From NCBI RefSeq assembly GCF_003334405.1, contig NZ_QOWM01000001.1: a stretch of DNA of 64,000 nt, one strand, 5' to 3'. Positions 491 to 8,780 of the stretch are shown piece after piece. Within the stretch, counting starts at the first letter, position 1. Each line of letters opens with the position of its first letter. The stretch is from Escherichia coli. Its GTDB lineage: Bacteria; Pseudomonadota; Gammaproteobacteria; Enterobacterales; Enterobacteriaceae. The translations under genes and the position numbers were made by a program. Below the pieces are notes generated by a model, which worked only from the letters and a program-made list of their open reading frames with translations, was not told where the DNA came from and ran no database searches.

Positions 491-1600
491 ATGAACGAAC
501 AATCCCAGGCCAAATCACCAGAAGCCTTGCGCGCAATGGTCGCCGGGACACTGGCCAATTTTCAGCACCCAACCCTGAAGCATAACCTCACCACGCTGAA
601 AGCGTTGCACCATGTCGCCTGGATGGACGACACGTTGCATGTGGAACTGGTTATGCCATTCGTCTGGCATAGCGCGTTTGAAGAGTTAAAAGAGCAATGT
701 AGCGCCGAACTGCTGCGTATCACCGGGGCGAAAGCTATCGACTGGAAACTGTCGCACAATATCGCCACCTTAAAACGCGTGAAGAATCAGCCGGGTATTA
801 ATGGCGTGAAGAACATCATTGCGGTCAGTTCCGGTAAAGGCGGCGTGGGTAAATCCTCCACGGCGGTAAACCTGGCGCTGGCACTGGCGGCGGAAGGGGC
901 GAAAGTCGGCATTCTGGACGCCGATATCTACGGCCCATCAATTCCCACCATGCTGGGCGCAGAAAATCAGCGTCCAACTTCGCCGGACGGTACCCATATG
1001 GCACCGATTATGTCTCATGGCCTGGCAACCAATTCAATTGGTTATCTGGTCACTGACGACAATGCGATGGTGTGGCGTGGACCGATGGCGAGCAAGGCGT
1101 TAATGCAGATGCTGCAGGAAACCTTGTGGCCGGATCTCGACTATCTGGTGCTTGATATGCCGCCAGGCACCGGTGACATTCAATTGACGCTGGCGCAAAA
1201 CATTCCAGTAACTGGTGCAGTCGTGGTCACCACCCCGCAGGACATCGCGTTGATCGATGCGAAAAAAGGCATTGTGATGTTCGAGAAAGTCGAGGTTCCG
1301 GTGCTCGGTATTGTCGAGAACATGAGTGTGCATATTTGCAGTAACTGTGGTCACCATGAACCGATTTTCGGTACCGGTGGTGCAGAGAAACTGGCTGAAA
1401 AATACCATACACAGCTGCTGGGGCAGATGCCGTTACACATCTCCTTACGTGAGGATCTCGATAAAGGCACGCCAACGGTTATCAGCCGTCCGGAGAGCGA
1501 ATTTACCGCTATCTACCGCCAGCTGGCTGACCGCGTTGCAGCTCAGCTCTACTGGCAGGGTGAAGTCATTCCAGGCGAGATTTCCTTCCGCGCGGTCTAA
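491..1600 (+). CDS. apbC: Fe-S cluster carrier P-loop ATPase Mrp/ApbC
   Basis: ORF 461..1600; likely start at internal Met (MNEQSQAKSPE...); Walker A SGKGGVGKSS, C-terminal CSNCGHH cysteine motif. Confidence 0.93.
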   Translation: MNEQSQAKSPEALRAMVAGTLANFQHPTLKHNLTTLKALHHVAWMDDTLHVELVMPFVWHSAFEELKEQCSAELLRITGAKAIDWKLSHNIATLKRVKNQPGINGVKNIIAVSSGKGGVGKSSTAVNLALALAAEGAKVGILDADIYGPSIPTMLGAENQRPTSPDGTHMAPIMSHGLATNSIGYLVTDDNAMVWRGPMASKALMQMLQETLWPDLDYLVLDMPPGTGDIQLTLAQNIPVTGAVVVTTPQDIALIDAKKGIVMFEKVEVPVLGIVENMSVHICSNCGHHEPIFGTGGAEKLAEKYHTQLLGQMPLHISLREDLDKGTPTVISRPESEFTAIYRQLADRVAAQLYWQGEVIPGEISFRAV

Positions 1601-1630
1601 CGCCTATTAACCATTCTGGTTATTCTTCAT

Positions 1631-1671
1631 ACACCGCAGAGATGTTATATTGATGCGGTGTATTTGTTTTT
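1631..1671 (+). terminator. Rho-independent terminator after apbC
   Basis: Inverted repeat acaccgca...tgcggtgt followed by a T-rich run (atttgttttt), 30 bp after the apbC stop. Confidence 0.6.
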
Positions 1672-1862
1672 GCCGCATTAATGAACACTTATTTAATACT
1701 GCGAATATTCTGCGGACCTTCGTCCGAAACTCTACAAAGTCGATTGATCGTACAGGCAATGCTTCATTATCATCCTTCGTGGCTGTGTAGTGGATGTACA
1801 GCTATAGTTTGTTATGCACTCATTCTATCCAGGCATAACCTTTACTACAGGGATAACGTTCA

Positions 1863-2144
1863 ATGAATAAGTATTGGCTGTCAGGAATTATTTTTCTTGC
1901 CTATGGATTGGCTTCTCCCGCGTTCTCTTCAGAGACTGCAACATTAACCATCAATGGCAGAATTAGTTCCCCTACATGCAGTATGGATGTTGTTAATAAT
2001 CATCTTCAGCAACGTTGTGGGCAGTTGTTACAACGAGTTGAAACCAACTATCGTGCTTCTTCTACTGCAAAAGGCGTTACGACAGAAGTGGTAACTGTGG
2101 GTAATAACGACAAACGCAAAATCGTGTTAAATCGCTACGATTAA
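1863..2144 (+). CDS. yehE: small secreted protein YehE, first gene of the yeh fimbrial cluster
   Basis: 93 aa ORF with N-terminal signal-like segment (MNKYWLSGIIFLAYGLASPAFS); position between apbC and yehD matches E. coli synteny. Confidence 0.75.
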   Translation: MNKYWLSGIIFLAYGLASPAFSSETATLTINGRISSPTCSMDVVNNHLQQRCGQLLQRVETNYRASSTAKGVTTEVVTVGNNDKRKIVLNRYD

Positions 2145-2442
2145 TTTGCCAACACCGTTTTAAGCATTAAGCATATTTAAAAAGCCAAAATCATTCCTAT
2201 GAATGATTTTGGCTTTTTTATTCACCTAATGAATGTTATTTACGGTAATTTACGGTAATTAATCAGTTTCAAAAATGTTTGTTATAGCGAATTATTTGTT
2301 GTATTTATATCGCATTAGTTAATTTGTTTTAAATCAACAAAACAATATGTTTACATTGCGGCAACTTTTTTGATGTGAGAAATTTGTTTCCAAGAGATAC
2401 AGACTCTTAACAAAACAAAATAAACTTATTAAGGAATGCATC

Positions 2443-2985
2443 ATGAAACATTCAATTATTGCTGTCGCTGTCTTATCTTCTGTATTTATGAGTGCTGGTA
2501 TTTTCGCTGCTGAAGTAGATACCGGAACTTTAACCATTAAAGGTAATATTGCTGAATCACCATGTACATTTGTCGCTGGCGGTGATTCAGTCAGTATTAA
2601 TATGCCGACTGTACCCACCACTGTATTTGATGGTAAAGCGAAATATTCAACTTATGATGGCGCGGTTGGTGTAACCAGCAGTATGCTGAAAATTACTTGT
2701 CCGAAGACTATTGATGGCGTAAAACTTTCGTTGATCACCAACGAGAAAATTCTTGGTAATGATAAGGCAATATCCAGTAGTAATGACACAGTTGGATACT
2801 ATCTCTATTTGGGAGATAGCAGTGACGTACTGGATATTTCCGCACCATTTAATATTGAAAGTTATAAAACTGCTGATGGACAATATGCAATACCGTTTAA
2901 GGCAAAATATCTGAAGTTGACTGACAGTGGTGTTGCATCTGGTACTGTTAACTCTTCATTGGTTATGCGTGTTGCCCAGGATTAA
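2443..2985 (+). CDS. yehD: fimbrial major subunit (chaperone-usher pathway)
   Basis: 180 aa, signal peptide, conserved Cys pair, pilin-like C-terminal beta-strand region; AAGGA RBS upstream. Confidence 0.88.
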   Translation: MKHSIIAVAVLSSVFMSAGIFAAEVDTGTLTIKGNIAESPCTFVAGGDSVSINMPTVPTTVFDGKAKYSTYDGAVGVTSSMLKITCPKTIDGVKLSLITNEKILGNDKAISSSNDTVGYYLYLGDSSDVLDISAPFNIESYKTADGQYAIPFKAKYLKLTDSGVASGTVNSSLVMRVAQD

Positions 2986-3024
2986 ATATTTAAAATAATC
3001 ATCTTGTTTTTTCAGTAAGTTAAA

Positions 3025-3747
3025 ATGGCCGCCATATTCATGGCGGCCAGCATAAATATAAGAGGCATTAAGATGAAAGGGTTATTATCTTTACTCATCT
3101 CTTCTATGATATTCCCCGTGCATGCCGGAATGGTTATTTTCGGGACCCGTATCATTTACCCGGCAGAGCAGAAAGAGGTCATGGTACAACTGATGAATCA
3201 GGGAAACCGCTCTTCGCTGATGCAGGCGTGGATTGATGATGGCGACACGTCTCTGCCGCCAGAAAAGATTCAGGTTCCTTTCATGTTAACGCCACCAGTA
3301 GTGAAAGTAGCGGCCAATTCTGGGCAACAAATAAAAATTAAAATCATGCCTAATAAATTACCCAGTAATAAGGAAAGTATTTTTTATCTTAATGTTCTGG
3401 ATATTCCACCGAATAGTCCAGAACAAGAAGGTAAGAATGCACTGAAGTTTGCGATGCAAAACAGAATCAAATTGTTTTACCGGCCGGCGGGTATTGCTCC
3501 GGTGAATAAAGCGACCTTTAAAAAGTTACTGATAAATCGCAGTGGCAATGGATTGGTGATAAAAAATGACTCAGCTAATTGGGTGACGATTTCGGATGTC
3601 AAAGCTAATAATGTCAAAGTCAATTATGAAACTATTATGATTGCCCCCTTAGAAAGTCAGAGTGTTAATGTCAAAAGTAATAATGCAAACAACTGGTATC
3701 TGACCATTATCGATGACCACGGCAACTATATTAGTGACAAAATTTAA
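3025..3747 (+). CDS. yehC: periplasmic fimbrial chaperone (PapD-like)
   Basis: ORF 3025..3747; alternative start at 3073 (MKGLLSLLISSMIFPVHA signal peptide); chaperone-type sequence including the LFYRPAG segment. Confidence 0.85.
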   Translation: MAAIFMAASINIRGIKMKGLLSLLISSMIFPVHAGMVIFGTRIIYPAEQKEVMVQLMNQGNRSSLMQAWIDDGDTSLPPEKIQVPFMLTPPVVKVAANSGQQIKIKIMPNKLPSNKESIFYLNVLDIPPNSPEQEGKNALKFAMQNRIKLFYRPAGIAPVNKATFKKLLINRSGNGLVIKNDSANWVTISDVKANNVKVNYETIMIAPLESQSVNVKSNNANNWYLTIIDDHGNYISDKI

Positions 3748-3762
3748 TTGCAGGAGCTGTCT

Positions 3763-6243
3763 ATGTTGAGAATGACCCCACTTGCATCAGCAATCGTAGC
3801 GTTATTGCTCGGCATTGAAGCTTATGCAGCTGAAGAAACCTTTGATACCCATTTTATGATAGGTGGAATGAAAGACCAGCAGGTTGCAAATATTCGTCTT
3901 GATGATAATCAACCCTTGCCGGGGCAGTATGACATCGATATTTATGTCAATAAGCAATGGCGCGGGAAATATGAGATCATTGTTAAAGACAACCCGCAAG
4001 AAACATGTTTATCAAGAGAAGTTATCAAGCGGTTAGGCATTAATAGCGATAACTTCGCCAGTGGTAAGCAATGTTTAACATTTGAGCAACTTGTTCAGGG
4101 TGGGAGCTATAGCTGGGATATCGGGGTTTTTCGTCTCGATTTCAGTGTCCCGCAGGCTTGGGTGGAAGAACTGGAAAGTGGCTATGTTCCACCGGAAAAC
4201 TGGGAGCGGGGTATTAATGCGTTTTATACCTCTTATTATGTGAGTCAGTATTACAGCGACTATAAAGCGTCGGGTAATAACAAGAGTACATATGTACGTT
4301 TTAACAGCGGGTTAAATTTACTGGGGTGGCAACTGCATTCTGATGCCAGTTTCAGTAAAACAAATAACAATCCAGGGGTGTGGAAAAGCAATACCCTGTA
4401 TCTGGAACGTGGATTTGCCCAACTTCTCGGCACGCTTCGCGTGGGTGATATGTACACATCAAGCGATATTTTTGATTCTGTTCGCTTCAGCGGTGTGCGG
4501 TTGTTTCGTGATATGCAGATGTTGCCTAACTCGAAACAAAATTTTACGCCACGGGTGCAGGGGATTGCTCAGAGTAACGCGCTGGTAACTATTGAACAGA
4601 ATGGTTTTGTCGTTTATCAGAAAGAGGTTCCTCCTGGCCCGTTTGCGATTACAGATTTGCAGTTGGCCGGTGGTGGAGCAGATCTTGATGTCAGCGTGAA
4701 AGAGGCGGACGGCTCGGTTACCACCTATCTGGTACCTTATGCAGCGGTGCCAAATATGCTGCAACCCGGCGTATCGAAATATGATTTTGCGGCGGGTCGT
4801 AGCCATATTGAAGGGGCGAGCAAACAAAGTGATTTTGTCCAGGCGGGTTATCAGTATGGTTTTAATAATTTATTGACGCTGTATGGTGGCTCGATGGTCG
4901 CGAATAATTATTACGCGTTCACTTTGGGGACTGGCTGGAATACCCGCATTGGTGCCATTTCCGTCGATGCCACGAAGTCGCATAGTAAACAAGACAACGG
5001 CGATGTGTTTGACGGGCAAAGTTATCAAATTGCCTACAACAAATTTGTGAGCCAAACGTCGACGCGTTTTGGTCTGGCGGCCTGGCGTTATTTGTCGCGT
5101 GATTACCGGACATTTAACGATCACGTTTGGGCAAACAATAAAGATAATTATCGCCGTGATAAAAACGATATCTATGACATTGCCGATTATTACCAGAACG
5201 ATTTTGGCCGTAAAAATAGCTTTTCTGCCAATATGAGCCAGTCATTGCCAGAAGGCTGGGGGTCTGTGTCCTTAAGTACGTTATGGCGAGATTACTGGGG
5301 GCGTAGCGGCAGCAGTAAGGATTATCAGTTGAGTTATTCCAATAACTGGCGGCGGATAAGCTATACCCTCGCGGCAAGCCAGGCGTATGACGAGAATCAT
5401 CATGAAGAGAAACGTTTTAATATTTTTATATCGATTCCCTTTGATTGGGGTGATGACGTTACGACGCCTCGTCGGCAAATATATATGTCTAACTCAACGA
5501 CGTTTGATGATCAGGGGGTTGCCTCAAATAATACGGGATTATCAGGAACCGTTGGAAGCCGGGATCAGTTTAACTATGGGGTCAACCTGAGTTATCAGCA
5601 TCAGGAAAATGAAACGACAGCTGGGGCGAATTTGACCTGGAACGCGCCGGTTGCGACAGTGAATGGCAGTTATAGTCAGTCGAGTACTTATCGACAGGCT
5701 GGAGCCAGTGTTTCAGGGGGCATTGTCGCCTGGTCGGGTGGCGTTAATCTGGCGAACCGTCTTTCCGAAACGTTTGCTGTGATGAATGCGCCAGGAATTA
5801 AAGATGCTTATGTCAATGGGCAAAAATATCGCACAACAAACCGTAATGGAGTGGTGATATACGACGGAATGACACCTTATCGGGAAAATCACCTGATGCT
5901 GGATGTGTCGCAAAGCGATAGCGAAGCAGAATTACGTGGCAACCGGAAAATTGCCGCACCTTATCGCGGCGCGGTTGTACTGGTTAATTTTGATACCGAT
6001 CAGCGCAAGCCCTGGTTTATAAAAGCGTTAAGAGCGGATGGTCAACCATTAATGTTTGGTTATGAAGTCAATGATATCCATGGTCATAATATTGGCGTTG
6101 TCGGCCAGGGAAGCCAGTTATTTATTCGCACCAATGAAGTACCGCCATCGGTTAATGTGGCAATTGATAAGCAACAAGGACTTTCATGCACAATCACCTT
6201 CGGTAAAGAGATTGATGAAAGTAGAAATTATATTTGCCAGTAA
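3763..6243 (+). CDS. yehB: fimbrial outer-membrane usher
   Basis: ORF 3748..6243 (831 aa); start probably MLRMTPLASA... at 3763; size and composition typical of PapC/FimD ushers. Confidence 0.9.
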   Translation: MLRMTPLASAIVALLLGIEAYAAEETFDTHFMIGGMKDQQVANIRLDDNQPLPGQYDIDIYVNKQWRGKYEIIVKDNPQETCLSREVIKRLGINSDNFASGKQCLTFEQLVQGGSYSWDIGVFRLDFSVPQAWVEELESGYVPPENWERGINAFYTSYYVSQYYSDYKASGNNKSTYVRFNSGLNLLGWQLHSDASFSKTNNNPGVWKSNTLYLERGFAQLLGTLRVGDMYTSSDIFDSVRFSGVRLFRDMQMLPNSKQNFTPRVQGIAQSNALVTIEQNGFVVYQKEVPPGPFAITDLQLAGGGADLDVSVKEADGSVTTYLVPYAAVPNMLQPGVSKYDFAAGRSHIEGASKQSDFVQAGYQYGFNNLLTLYGGSMVANNYYAFTLGTGWNTRIGAISVDATKSHSKQDNGDVFDGQSYQIAYNKFVSQTSTRFGLAAWRYLSRDYRTFNDHVWANNKDNYRRDKNDIYDIADYYQNDFGRKNSFSANMSQSLPEGWGSVSLSTLWRDYWGRSGSSKDYQLSYSNNWRRISYTLAASQAYDENHHEEKRFNIFISIPFDWGDDVTTPRRQIYMSNSTTFDDQGVASNNTGLSGTVGSRDQFNYGVNLSYQHQENETTAGANLTWNAPVATVNGSYSQSSTYRQAGASVSGGIVAWSGGVNLANRLSETFAVMNAPGIKDAYVNGQKYRTTNRNGVVIYDGMTPYRENHLMLDVSQSDSEAELRGNRKIAAPYRGAVVLVNFDTDQRKPWFIKALRADGQPLMFGYEVNDIHGHNIGVVGQGSQLFIRTNEVPPSVNVAIDKQQGLSCTITFGKEIDESRNYICQ

Positions 6244-6258
6244 TAGTCAGGTGGTTCT

Positions 6259-7293
6259 ATGGAAATTCGCATAATGCAATTTATATTAATGATGATGGTT
6301 ATGCCTGTGAGCTATGCGGCATGTTATAGTGAGTTATCTGTTCAGCACAACTTGGTTGTTCAGGGGGATTTTGCACTTACTCAAACACAAATGGCGACAT
6401 ATGAGCATACTTTTAATGATTCGTCATGCGTGAGTACAAATACTATCACCCCTATGAGCCCGTCGGATATTATTGTTGGACTTTATAACGATACCATAAA
6501 ATTAAATTTACATTTTGAATGGACCAATAAAAACAACATCACGTTGTCAAATAATCAGACCAGTTTCACCAGTGGTTATTCAGTTACGGTGACACCTGCG
6601 GCCAGTAATGCAAAAGTGAATGTTTCTGCGGGGGGCGGCGGTTCAGTGATGATTAATGGTGTTGCGACATTATCCAGTGCTTCATCATCGACACGCGGGA
6701 GTGCCGCAGTACAATTTCTACTGTGTTTATTAGGTGGCAAGTCATGGGATGCATGTGTAAATAACTACAGAAATGCATTGGCACAAAATGCAGGTGTCTA
6801 TTCCTTTAATCTGACATTGTCATACAACCCGATAACCACAACCTGCAAACCGGACGATTTATTAATTACTTTAGACAGCATTCCCGTTTCACAATTACCA
6901 GCCACAGGTAACAAAGCAACAATAAATAGTAAACAAGGGGATATTATTCTGCGTTGTAAAAGTTTATTAGGTCAACAAAATCAAACATCACGGAAAATGC
7001 AGGTGTATTTATCAAGTTCTGACTTGTTAACCAACAGCAACACAATACTGAAAGGTGCGGAAGATAATGGCGTAGGATTTATTCTTGAAAGTAATGGTTC
7101 GCCAGTCACACTTTTAAATATCACTAACAGCAGTAAAGGATACACAAATTTAAAAGAAATTGCGGCAAAGTCAAAACTTACAGATACAACGGTTTCAATT
7201 CCGATAACAGCCAGTTACTACGTCTACGATACAAACAAAGTTAAATCTGGCGCACTGGAGGCAACCGCATTAATCAACGTGAAATACGACTAA
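6259..7293 (+). CDS. yehA: fimbrial adhesin-like subunit
   Basis: 344 aa, signal peptide, two-domain size typical of tip adhesins; last gene of the operon. Confidence 0.85.
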   Translation: MEIRIMQFILMMMVMPVSYAACYSELSVQHNLVVQGDFALTQTQMATYEHTFNDSSCVSTNTITPMSPSDIIVGLYNDTIKLNLHFEWTNKNNITLSNNQTSFTSGYSVTVTPAASNAKVNVSAGGGGSVMINGVATLSSASSSTRGSAAVQFLLCLLGGKSWDACVNNYRNALAQNAGVYSFNLTLSYNPITTTCKPDDLLITLDSIPVSQLPATGNKATINSKQGDIILRCKSLLGQQNQTSRKMQVYLSSSDLLTNSNTILKGAEDNGVGFILESNGSPVTLLNITNSSKGYTNLKEIAAKSKLTDTTVSIPITASYYVYDTNKVKSGALEATALINVKYD

Positions 7294-7349
7294 TAACAAG
7301 CAAGACGAGCAAGTGGCTAATAATAAAAAATAACAAGGTGTCTGCATTT

Positions 7350-7377
7350 CCCCCTCATGATGAGGGGGCTTTTTTTA
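7350..7377 (+). terminator. Rho-independent terminator after yehA
   Basis: Hairpin ccccctca-tga-tgaggggg followed by seven T; the T-run overlaps the rcnB stop codon on the opposite strand. Confidence 0.75.
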
Positions 7378-7713
7378 GCGATGATAAAAAATCTCACCGT
7401 CGTAGGCTTTAATGATTTTACCGTCGGTGTCGCTGATCAACACGTACGCGCCACCCATATAGGTCCAGTGCGTCCCGGCATCAGGCGCGGGCAGGTTACG
7501 CAACTGCCACTGCTTAATGTTGTACTCATCGGTACGGTACATTTCTGGTACGGTGTCCCCTGGTTTGAAATGCTTAAAGTCAGCAATGAAACTACTTAAC
7601 TCATACTTAGAAATTCCCGAGGTATTGGTCGAACCCGCGGTGGCTGGTGCGGCCCAGGCGGCACTGGTAACCAGCAAAAGCGCACCCAGTAACATCTTAT
7701 TTTTAATGGTCAT
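7375..7713 (-). CDS. rcnB: periplasmic protein RcnB (nickel/cobalt homeostasis)
   Basis: ORF 7375..7938 but product matches RcnB from internal Met (MTIKNKMLLGALLLVTSAAWA..., 112 aa); signal peptide. Confidence 0.88.
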   Translation of the reverse strand: MTIKNKMLLGALLLVTSAAWAAPATAGSTNTSGISKYELSSFIADFKHFKPGDTVPEMYRTDEYNIKQWQLRNLPAPDAGTHWTYMGGAYVLISDTDGKIIKAYDGEIFYHR

Positions 7714-7934
7714 AAACTCTCCACTTTGGGGATCTGTAATATCAGTCGCATATCTTTCCTGCCATACAATATAACTGACAAGCGATATTTTGTTAGTGAT
7801 CCCATGATTTCGTAAAAAGTGTAAATGAAAGGATGCCCTAAAAGCATCCTTAGCGAGCAGAGAGTCAGCGGAAATAGCTGATTTAAGAATCATCCTGGGC
7901 TGAAGATAACATGCAAGCCTAAAGGATTGAGTTA

Positions 7935-8780
7935 TCACATTATGCCCATGAAGCCATGTACGCCCATATACACACCGACTAAGCCAATCAACAGACTGGA
8001 AAAATAGGGGGCGCGTTTAGCGAGAGTGTTAAATCCGCTCCAGCGTTTTGCGACCTGCTGAACGCTGATTGCTGCGCCAACGCCTACGGTGACAAGCGTA
8101 AACGCCAGGCCAATGCTGAAACTGACGACCAGTGTTGCGCCCAGTGTCAGGGCTTTCAACTGAATGCATATCAATAGCACGGTAATTGCTGCCGGGCAGG
8201 GGATAAGGCCACCGGTTAAGCCAAATAACAAAATTTGCCAGTTGGTGACCTCTCTACCATCAAAGCGTCGTTTAATGTCATTGGCATGGGCTCGTGCATG
8301 GGCATCCTGATACTCGCCATGTTCGTGATGGTGATGATGTCCATGGTCGTGGTGATGTTCGTGGTCTTGATGATGTTCGTGATCGTGATGATGGTGATGA
8401 TGCTCATAATCATACTCGTGCATATTCTCCAGCCAGTTGCGTTCGCCGCGCCAGGTACGCCAGAACATCCAGAACGCGGTGCCAATAATGATCACTGCGG
8501 AAATCAGCTGGAGCCACGGTTCTGCTGATTGAGCAGTAAAGCGCTTGCTGATCACCATCCCGCCAAAGGCAATTAACCAGACCACTGCGGTATGCGAAAT
8601 AGTTGCTGCCAGTCCGAGCATCACCGCTTGTTTAATGGTGCCTTTGATGGCGATGATAAACGCCGCCATCATCGTTTTTGAGTGCCCTGGTTCCAGGCCA
8701 TGAAGCGCACCAAGTAAGATGGCGCTGGGGATGAAGAACCAGGCGTTTCCTTGCTGAAGAAGAGTTGTAAATTCGGTCAT
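7935..8780 (-). CDS. rcnA: nickel/cobalt efflux transporter RcnA with His-rich loop
   Basis: 281 aa; MTEFTTLLQQGNAWFFIPSAILLGALHGLEPGHSK...; central loop HEYDYEHHHHHHDHEHHQDHEHHHDHGHHHHHEHGE. Confidence 0.95.
   Translation of the reverse strand: MTEFTTLLQQGNAWFFIPSAILLGALHGLEPGHSKTMMAAFIIAIKGTIKQAVMLGLAATISHTAVVWLIAFGGMVISKRFTAQSAEPWLQLISAVIIIGTAFWMFWRTWRGERNWLENMHEYDYEHHHHHHDHEHHQDHEHHHDHGHHHHHEHGEYQDAHARAHANDIKRRFDGREVTNWQILLFGLTGGLIPCPAAITVLLICIQLKALTLGATLVVSFSIGLAFTLVTVGVGAAISVQQVAKRWSGFNTLAKRAPYFSSLLIGLVGVYMGVHGFMGIM

Follow-up and report, generated by a model that had tools for sequence, protein, structure and literature searches.

A hybrid Yhl/Yeh chaperone-usher pilus locus and its AT-rich upstream spacer in Escherichia coli

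The stretch of Escherichia coli DNA analysed here (64 kb, hereafter the window) carries the core-genome Yeh pilus locus of the species, with mrp/apbC on one side and rcnB on the other, and this locus is a recombinant between the Yhl and Yeh forms. The chaperone-usher locus itself is already known, intact and ordinary; its hybrid Yhl/Yeh make-up is the new part. Taken as a whole, the region is quite probably best explained as the known Yeh locus, organized in two transcription units, chimeric between Yhl and Yeh, and carrying a repeat produced by slippage; the gene content, intactness, chimerism, terminator covariation, conservation profile and copy-number variation were all observed directly here. 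The complete, intact yeh locus described at 1863–7293 by the initial annotation is borne out, with five open reading frames on the + strand. The locus has a match in 5424 of the 5426 complete genomes, with 100% identity to E. coli VG48B2, and a search of the 64-kb window for a second yeh-like copy found none. An Rfam scan of 1500–7700 returned no RNA family, with one sub-threshold match on the yehA/rcnB terminator.

The recombinant block, of the Yhl type found in O157:H7 and Escherichia sp. E1V33, spans about 1.48 kb (1940 to about 3417) within a K-12-type Yeh backbone. Informative sites are K-12-like from 1711 to 1938, nearly all O157-like from 1940 to 3411, and K-12-like again from 3424 to 7361, a pattern with which the sliding identity agrees. 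Mature YehE, the spacer, the pilin and the N-terminal half of the chaperone all fall within this block; the usher, the adhesin and what remains of the chaperone have the K-12/UTI89 Yeh form. The same junction within yehC is present in 40 of 5,426 complete genomes, at an identity of at least 99%. This ~1.5-kb block comes from the allelic Yhl form, which occurs in O157:H7 and in a cryptic Escherichia lineage. The initial annotation had missed the recombinant nature of the locus.

Comparison with the two parental forms makes the mosaic explicit. The Yeh locus of K-12/UTI89 lies at the same chromosomal site with the same gene order, and its usher (98.2%), its adhesin (98.5%) and the island holding the ArcA box (41/43) are nearly identical to those of the window; it differs in the pilin (85.6% at the amino-acid level), mature YehE (about 66%) and the distal spacer (about 56%), where the 10-mer pair described below is present only in degenerate form. 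The Yhl operon of O157:H7 (Z3276–Z3279) occupies this same site and is allelic to Yeh; it has an identical pilin protein and a spacer with the same tandem 10-mer, whereas its usher is 78–93% identical in nucleotides and its adhesin, YhlD (PDB 8V9V), shares only about 50% nucleotide identity with the Yeh adhesin of the window. The comparison shows the Yeh and Yhl pili of the literature to be allelic variants at a single chromosomal site, with recombination taking place inside the chaperone gene. Note that the K-12 names yehDCBA correspond, in reverse order, to the Hultgren-lab names yehABCD. Salmonella Stc (stcABCD), a gamma-4 operon of four genes, is orthologous and occupies the same locus (PMC3559732, PMC12778044); the likeness to Stc is drawn from these papers, the best NCBIfam match of the window chaperone being StcB at 340.8 bits against a curated cut-off of 500.

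The major pilin gene yehD (2443–2985, + strand) is of the Yhl-operon type, its product WP_000682830.1 being identical in O157:H7 and the gene 100% identical to that of Escherichia sp. E1V33. Compared with K-12, it is 85.6% identical in amino acids and 80% in nucleotides (dS 1.2, dN/dS 0.07). It aligns over residues 1–179 with the NCBIfam YehD model (NF011766) at 106 bits, below the 136 cut-off, and RefSeq names it 'fimbrial protein' only; it combines a signal peptide with a Fimbrial fold, and representatives of its 99%-identical cluster carry PF00419. In pap and fim operons, a stem-loop is placed after the major-subunit gene. The window too has a stable GC-rich hairpin directly 3′ of the pilin gene, between yehD and yehC (3026–3049, + strand), lying within a fold of 2986–3080 (−29.3 kcal/mol, z −5.6). 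Compensatory changes in this hairpin occur in E. whittamii, E. albertii and MOD1, and in Citrobacter and UBA5654 its place is taken by another GC hairpin, so that the position is conserved across genera; in Escherichia no U tract follows it.

The periplasmic chaperone gene yehC (3073–3747, + strand) is itself chimeric, with the crossover near 3411–3424. Its reading frame is also open from 3025, but the true start is 3073, the RefSeq start, preceded by the conserved ribosome-binding site AAGAGGCATTAAGATG. YehC matches NCBIfam StcB (E 3e-102) and models of fimbrial chaperones over the full length; although every one of these matches falls below the equivalog cut-off, the assignment as a PapD-like chaperone is unambiguous. 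The outer-membrane usher gene yehB (3763–6243, + strand) is of the K-12 type: its product matches NF011763 over 1–826 of 826 positions at 1753.8 bits (cut-off 933) and is 98.2% identical in amino acids to K-12 YehB. Ushers from homologous loci carry PF13954, PF00577 and PF13953. From this 98% identity and the published classification (PMC12778044, PMC3559732), the usher would belong to the gamma-4 clade.

The last gene, yehA (6259–7293, + strand), encodes a two-domain tip adhesin of the Yeh type, which matches NF011788 over 1–344 of 344 positions at 679.8 bits (cut-off 395) and has a Pfam Fimbrial domain (PF00419) at 184–344. Its receptor-binding domain (residues 21–193) is identical at 171 of 173 positions to PDB 9N4G, the pectin-binding Yeh adhesin described in 2026 (PMC12778044); the earlier remark that the specificity of the adhesin was unknown is therefore outdated. 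In the PDB search with the window adhesin, 8V9V was absent among the matches, and it is the O157 adhesin from the same locus that matches this structure of YhlD (PMC12778044). YhlD binds colonic mucosa and not pectin, whereas the window carries the Yeh adhesin; by its adhesin, the pilus type is Yeh, not Yhl. At the gene level, usher, chaperone, pilin and two-domain tip adhesin make up a classical chaperone-usher set. The operon ends with a terminator (7350–7376, + strand; an 8-bp GC stem and a T run in the terminator scan) lying between the convergent yehA and rcnB and identical in sequence in K-12.

All five genes, yehE, yehD, yehC, yehB and yehA, have the length of their K-12 counterparts, and none contains a frameshift or premature stop relative to K-12; such lesions in yehB or yehA had been named as what would make the operon non-functional. 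With dN/dS ratios of 0.04–0.28 over the four operon genes and 0.29–0.32 for yehE, all genes are under purifying selection. That the locus is instead a decaying, non-functional relic might be suggested by the poor expression of Yeh in laboratory K-12 (Korea et al, 2010, as cited) and by the chimeric chaperone. The intact frames and the low dN/dS values, however, stand against decay, as do the retention of the same intact hybrid by 40 genomes from diverse hosts and the published expression or function of each parental form (PMC11287998, PMC12778044), which leaves the relic reading extremely improbable. Neither does the label "cryptic" given earlier hold, the same upstream allele giving native expression in EHEC 86-24 (PMC11287998).

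The first gene, yehE (1863–2144, + strand), encodes a 93-aa secreted DUF2574 protein (PF10836, E 3.1e-44, 1–93 of 93 positions), 74% identical to K-12 YehE overall and about 66% in the mature part, where dN/dS is 0.29. It had been grouped with the other four as a yehEDCBA operon, from which we remove it: yehE is a separate transcription unit. Downstream of it lies an intrinsic terminator (2179–2220, + strand) made of an 18-bp stem, a 4-nt loop and a T tract, with a folding energy of −22.4 kcal/mol (z −7.67). In an alignment of eight alleles, 98% of the cells are paired and four pairs have changed on both sides, a covariation score that 0 of 500 shuffles reached; the structure covaries across Escherichia and Citrobacter and has the make-up of a Rho-independent terminator. 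A consensus scan alone gives a candidate sigma-70-like promoter, TTGATC-18-TATCAT (1744–1773, + strand), which scores 9/12 and precedes the yehE ATG by about 90 bp.

One could alternatively consider yehE as the first gene of a five-gene operon in which the 2179–2220 hairpin merely acts as a partial attenuator. The two genes yehE and yehD are co-oriented, the DUF2574 gene always adjoins a Yeh-type four-gene pilus operon in the homologous loci, and the scan of the spacer found no sigma-70-like promoter scoring 9/12 or better. This organization is nevertheless quite unlikely in view of the strong, covarying terminator flanked by A and T tracts, of the 298-bp spacer with its conserved regulatory island, and of the one distant homologous locus (L015) in which the DUF2574 gene is divergent from the pilus operon. 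In published work, too, the operon begins with yehD, and a native yeh promoter serves for complementation (PMC11287998). The locus would thus comprise two transcription units, yehE alone and then yehDCBA, for major pilin, chaperone, usher and two-domain tip adhesin.

The spacer between these units (2145–2442, 298 bp) had been described as very AT-rich, and it is: its GC content is 26.8%, compared to 50.7% for the window, which makes it the most AT-rich stretch of the 64 kb, among the lowest 0.1% of all 298-bp windows in GC, the ten lowest all lying within 2101–2500. Before yehD, a 118-bp regulatory island (2296–2413, + strand) is 95% identical to K-12, with a mean identity of 0.92 across Escherichia and 0.81 to Citrobacter, whereas its flanks are 56–72% identical to K-12 and the part of the spacer far from yehD about 56%. 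Inside the island, 2325–2367 is the reverse complement of the ArcA~P box published upstream of yeh in K-12 (mapped sequence in the supplement of PMC3798270), identical at 41 of 43 positions and presenting, upstream of the operon, the direct repeats expected of an ArcA regulon member. According to this supplement, yehD has no known transcription start site.

Silencing by H-NS, as initially proposed, agrees with the AT-richness and with H-NS binding data (PMC5797941), the published evidence coming from the K-12 allele: H-NS associates with K-12 yehDCBA (Kahramanoglou, 2011; Oshima, 2006; as tabulated in PMC5797941). Over-expression of SlyA up-regulates yeh, an effect attributed to H-NS antagonism (PMC5797941). 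In EHEC 86-24, CsrA bound the yeh 5′ UTR in EMSA and binding was lost on changing GG to CC (PMC11287998). The Shine-Dalgarno sequence AAGGA of yehD (2431–2435, + strand) contains the one GG found in the proximal 5′ UTR, and from this sequence and the EMSA it is the probable CsrA site. The AT-rich spacer is the control region, acted upon in the two parental alleles by H-NS and SlyA, by ArcA~P repression through the island box and by CsrA at the 5′ UTR; we infer that this regulation, published for K-12 or EHEC alleles, may carry over to the present strain.

Between the yehE terminator and the island, 183–203 bp upstream of the yehD ATG, lies a tandem of the 10-mer TTACGGTAAT in two copies (2238–2260; TRF: period 10, 2.3 copies, 100% match). 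The initial annotation had correctly seen a perfect repeat but put it one base off, at 2241–2260, the exact units being at 2240–2249 and 2250–2259. It is the sole perfect tandem of period at least 10 in the 64 kb; such tandems arise in 7% of composition-preserving shuffles of the window and in 28 of 20,000 shuffles of the spacer, therefore the repeat is not an artefact of composition. The tandem is identical in O157 and E1V33, and has three copies in O157:H7 TB21-1 and at least nine genomes, two copies in about 350 of roughly 370 Yhl-type genomes and one copy in E. whittamii. One-copy alleles are documented only in the latter species; among E. coli genomes, the matches of at least 99% to a one-copy query are made of split or partial alignments. 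Since one, two or three copies occur in close relatives, slippage is the likely origin of the repeat. The spacer does accumulate such events, as indicated by a second small duplication private to this lineage, TTAAGCA ×2 (2160–2174; TRF), which is present as a single copy in O157, strain 106 and K-12.

A duplication of this kind is a mutational event and in itself no sign of function. The 10-mer pair is most likely a replication-slippage product without sequence-specific role, contributing at most generic AT-rich DNA, and we infer it to be functionally neutral. A rather unlikely alternative is that the units are helically phased half-sites for a dimeric or tandem-binding regulator (e.g. of the OmpR/PhoB type) exerting distal control of yehD. 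The improbability of the tandem by chance and its 10-bp period, equal to one helical turn, speak for such a site. TTTAC recurs at this period, and E. albertii and K-12-type alleles retain at the same place a degenerate two-unit form (TTTACnnnAA/TyTACnnTAA), so that some constraint is possible. Each unit holds a 9-bp palindrome, TTAC-G-GTAA, resembling TTGCGGCAA in the island; the units may also resemble OmpR half-sites, a lead only. Deletion of ompR in Salmonella up-regulates yehD (PMC13413605). Against a regulatory site, near-identical alleles carry anything from 1 to 3 copies, the mean pairwise identity of the 10-mer (0.60) is no better than that of the neutral-looking spacer around it (0.61; 0.92 for the island), and the motif is unrecognizable in Citrobacter. 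The sole mapped regulator site, that of ArcA, lies elsewhere in the spacer, and our literature search found no publication placing a site on the 10-mer.

Compared by eye with the repeat, the SlyA consensus TTA-N6-TAA does not fit and matches to the IHF and CRP consensuses are unconvincing; the ArcA direct-repeat motif fails on a period of 10 rather than 11 and on a poor half-site match. Across the window, 14 palindromes of the TTRCnGYAA family were counted for 6.2 expected, in no regulon-like pattern.

In other fimbrial promoters, repeats are known to mediate switching. Here, copy-number polymorphism (1, 2 or 3) in natural isolates might likewise suggest that gain and loss of 10-bp units tunes or switches pilus expression by phase variation. 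We regard this as highly improbable: with only two or three units, slippage rates should be low, and two copies prevail in about 350 of roughly 370 genomes, as counted above. In addition, the tract precedes the island and lies 183–203 bp before the ATG, making a promoter-spacer position unlikely; it is outside any reading frame, and a 10-bp step preserves the helical phase. The tract thus has neither the many units nor the placement, in a promoter spacer or reading frame, of simple-sequence contingency loci, and neutral slippage remains our preferred explanation.

As to the product of yehE, its sequence might suggest an unlikely role as a "mini-pilin", a dedicated accessory of Yeh-type pili that could associate with the chaperone and act as a cap or terminator of the fibre. 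The mature N-terminus copies the N-terminal strand of the pilin (SETATLTINGRISSPTC vs DTGTLTIKGNIAESPC), and the invariant C-terminal R-x-I-V-L-N-R-Y-D is reminiscent of the strand that ends the adhesin pilin domain (…INVKYD). If so, co-adaptation would explain why mature YehE, the pilin and the chaperone N-domain were all moved in one recombinant block. BLASTP of YehE against YehD was not significant, and hhalign gave 84% probability over residues 1–42 only, signal peptides included. An exhaustive profile search with YehE recovered 32 proteins only, most of them short (about 90 aa or fragments) and four long ones matching over short stretches only; none was a pilin-sized protein of ~180 aa, and a pilin origin of YehE is therefore unsupported. 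A PDB search with YehE gave only a non-significant match to FimG, and AlphaFold2 modelled YehE (14-sequence alignment) with a mean pLDDT of 44 and a YehC-linker-YehE fusion (8 paired sequences) with a pLDDT of 35, both too low to be informative. A terminator subunit is otherwise absent from four-gene Yeh operons.

The practical value of these findings is small and lies in a corrected annotation: yehE is a separate unit, yehC starts at 3073, and the ligand of the adhesin is known. The fact that DUF2574 is strictly linked to Yeh-type operons offers a testable lead on an uncharacterized protein family. Finally, as Yeh and Yhl alleles recombine inside yehC, a typing scheme based solely on the adhesin gene assigns the pilin to the wrong class, with possible consequences for serology or vaccine ideas that target the pilin.

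In this E. coli window the locus lies between mrp/apbC and the convergent rcnB, in the order yehE, yehD, yehC, yehB, yehA, opposite to the K-12 map orientation; 5424 of the 5426 complete genomes match 1601–7400, over which strain VG48B2 is 100% identical. Frameshifts in yehB or yehA, named by the initial annotation as what would make the operon non-functional, were looked for and none was found: the operon is intact, with all five yeh ORFs open and equal in length to their K-12 counterparts. Full-length matches link the YehB usher to NF011763 (1753.8 bits) and the YehC chaperone to the StcB and fimbrial chaperone models, and the YehA adhesin (NF011788, 679.8 bits) has a receptor-binding domain at its N-terminus and a Pfam Fimbrial domain (184–344) at its C-terminus. 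YehE is a DUF2574 protein over its full length. Beyond the operon, rcnA (7932–8780, minus strand) shows a 24-nt length difference from K-12, probably in the His-rich loop region, with 96.5% identity across 849 aligned columns.

The two ends of the operon differ sharply in their relation to K-12. Compared gene by gene, mrp, yehB, yehA and rcnB are 97.5–99.7% identical to K-12 at the nucleotide level, versus ~80% for yehE and yehD and 89.5% for yehC. By sliding identity and a scan of informative sites, with K-12 and O157:H7 as references, we assigned 1711–1938 and 3424–7361 to K-12 as the closest relative, and the intervening 1940–3411 to O157:H7 (~305 of 310 informative sites). Within this imported block lie mature YehE, the entire yehE–yehD spacer with its repeat, the pilin and the chaperone's N-terminal half. 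O157:H7 and Escherichia sp. E1V33 encode the identical pilin (WP_000682830.1; 100%), and those of E. whittamii and E. albertii are 97% and 93% identical to it, respectively. At the other end, the window adhesin shares 171 of 173 positions with PDB 9N4G, the UTI89 “YehD” that binds pectin (PMC12778044, where gene naming runs in reverse order), so that the earlier view of its specificity as unknown is outdated. The O157 adhesin from the same mrp–rcnB site matches PDB 8V9V, the receptor-binding domain of “YhlD”, which was cloned from Sakai (PMC12778044). Since one site thus holds YhlD in O157 and a Yeh adhesin here, “Yhl” and “Yeh” are alleles of one locus, and the window is, as judged from these alignments, a Yhl-type pilin end joined to a Yeh-type usher and adhesin end.

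The junction within yehC is common to exactly 40 of the 5426 complete genomes at ≥99%, from pigs, people, poultry, wildlife and water, and the Yhl-type 5′ segment is carried by ~368 genomes in all. Between allele classes, dS reaches ~1.2 for yehD (dN/dS 0.07) and 0.87 for mature yehE (dN/dS 0.29); both classes are old, with function kept in each. The yhl locus of O157:H7 (L003:5600–10800) is 98–100% identical to that of the cryptic-clade E1V33 (L005), whereas identity is no more than 88–95% in mrp and metG on its flanks. A near-identical locus within diverged flanks suggests that the complete Yhl cassette moved between lineages by homologous recombination. Separately, Yhl-type genomes (O157:H7, strain 300709) contain a second, weaker chromosomal match to the yehE–yehD segment; none was found within the 64-kb window. 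This match may be related to the co-occurrence of the yehD and yhlD adhesin genes, both carried by half of phylogroup E strains according to a published report.

Directly 3′ of the pilin gene lies a GC-rich hairpin (3026–3049) with compensatory changes in three Escherichia lineages; its place is taken in Citrobacter and UBA5654 by another GC hairpin, unrelated to it. The hairpin at 3026–3049 may govern the ratio of pilin to chaperone transcript. In the K-12 annotation the yehC start codon falls within it, probably wrongly; we place the start at 3073, because a conserved ribosome-binding site and the RefSeq annotation agree there. Note that in Citrobacter sp. Res13-Sevr-PEB04-36 the Yeh-locus chaperone ORF (L012:6658–7119) has only 153 aa, with tblastn coverage of residues 1–135 only, and the gene is probably disrupted.

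At 35 bp past the yehE stop stands a perfect 18-bp hairpin set between A and T tracts (2179–2220; ΔG −22.4 kcal/mol, z −7.7). Among eight distinct Escherichia and Citrobacter alleles its pairing holds in 98% of cells, with changes on both sides in four pairs, a score unreached by any shuffle or slid register. Upstream of yehE, a sigma-70-like site is predicted at 1744–1773. Divergent DUF2574 homologues (~35–47% identity; L015:4975–6273, and loci L017 and L019) always adjoin a four-gene Yeh-type operon; in L015 (MAG GCA_032071645.1), which has a different genomic context, the DUF2574 and pilin genes are arranged head-to-head. Together, the terminator, the promoter-like site, the constant linkage and the one divergent orientation argue that YehE is a conserved partner of Yeh-type pili, yet a separate transcription unit. 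The yehEDCBA operon of the initial annotation thus does not stand. The literature also starts at yehD, with a single transcript from yehD to yehA (PMC11287998). The likeness of YehE to pilins is confined to its N-terminal 42 residues.

At 26.8% GC versus 50.7% for the window, the spacer between yehE and yehD (2145–2442) is richer in AT than any other 298-bp stretch of the 64 kb, in line with the initial description, and H-NS association had already been published for K-12 yehDCBA, from two genome-wide studies (PMC5797941). An alignment of spacers from eleven sources was scored for conservation over the Escherichia alleles. Mean pairwise identity is 0.58 in the yehE 3′ UTR (2145–2178), 0.84 in the terminator (2179–2220), 0.61 in the distal spacer (2221–2295) and 0.92 in an island at 2296–2413 (0.81 to Citrobacter), where the window is 95% identical to K-12 despite saturated neighbouring synonymous sites. 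In reverse complement, positions 2325–2367 agree at 41 of 43 bases with the ArcA~P box that was mapped in front of yehD in K-12; loss of ArcA derepresses yehDCBA 5.4-fold (PMC3798270 supplement), and SlyA over-expression raises K-12 yehDCBA 3.6-fold (PMC5797941). In EHEC 86-24, whose upstream region is of the Yhl type, the native promoter is active, ethanolamine raises expression and the binding of CsrA to the 5′ UTR depends on GG (PMC11287998). The only GG of the proximal UTR in the window belongs to the Shine-Dalgarno AAGGA (2431–2435), a putative CsrA site. A consensus scan of the spacer found no sigma-70-like site of ≥9/12, which fits a weak, regulator-dependent promoter; no yehD transcription start site is published (PMC3798270 supplement).

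The tandem 10-mer of the initial annotation is real, one position from where it had been placed: TTACGGTAAT/TTACGGTAAT at 2240–2259, extended by TRF to 2238–2260. It is the sole perfect tandem of period ≥10 in the window, and such a tandem arises in 7% of composition-preserving shuffles of the window and 0.14% of those of the spacer. The repeat belongs to the Yhl-type spacer. O157:H7 and E1V33 have it in identical form, E. whittamii has one unit and differs by a clean indel of 10 bp, E. albertii (TTTACAACAA/TTTACGGTAA) and K-12 (TTTACATAAA/TCTACATTAA) have degenerate versions, and in the Citrobacter spacer alignment it is not recognisable. The units are 9-bp palindromes with a period of one helical turn, and a degenerate pair is retained throughout the genus, as might be expected of a specific binding site, but the repeat lies outside the conserved island and is no better conserved than the distal spacer (0.60 versus 0.61), making such a role improbable. 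Some O157:H7 isolates have three copies, read directly in TB21-1 (L013:183–212) and also present in strain HB6 (L014), both cattle isolates from Nebraska; at least nine complete genomes match this form at ≥99%. A contingency switch is highly improbable. Copy-number variation among near-identical alleles, conservation no better than the flanks and a position outside the island instead favour replication slippage, in AT-rich DNA under weak constraint. A second perfect tandem duplication, of 7 bp and private to the window (two copies of TTAAGCA, 2160–2174), lies in the yehE 3′ UTR; the unit is single in O157, strain 106 and K-12.

Earlier publications cover the operon, the AT-rich control region with its H-NS association and the adhesin ligand (PMC3559732, PMC5797941, PMC3798270, PMC11287998, PMC12778044; Korea 2010, as cited in other papers), so that the locus as initially described is known and the description partly outdated. 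Added here are the recombinant allele and the allelic relation of Yeh and Yhl, yehE as a separate unit strictly linked to Yeh-type operons, and the variable repeat copy number, all tidy and unsurprising for a fimbrial locus.
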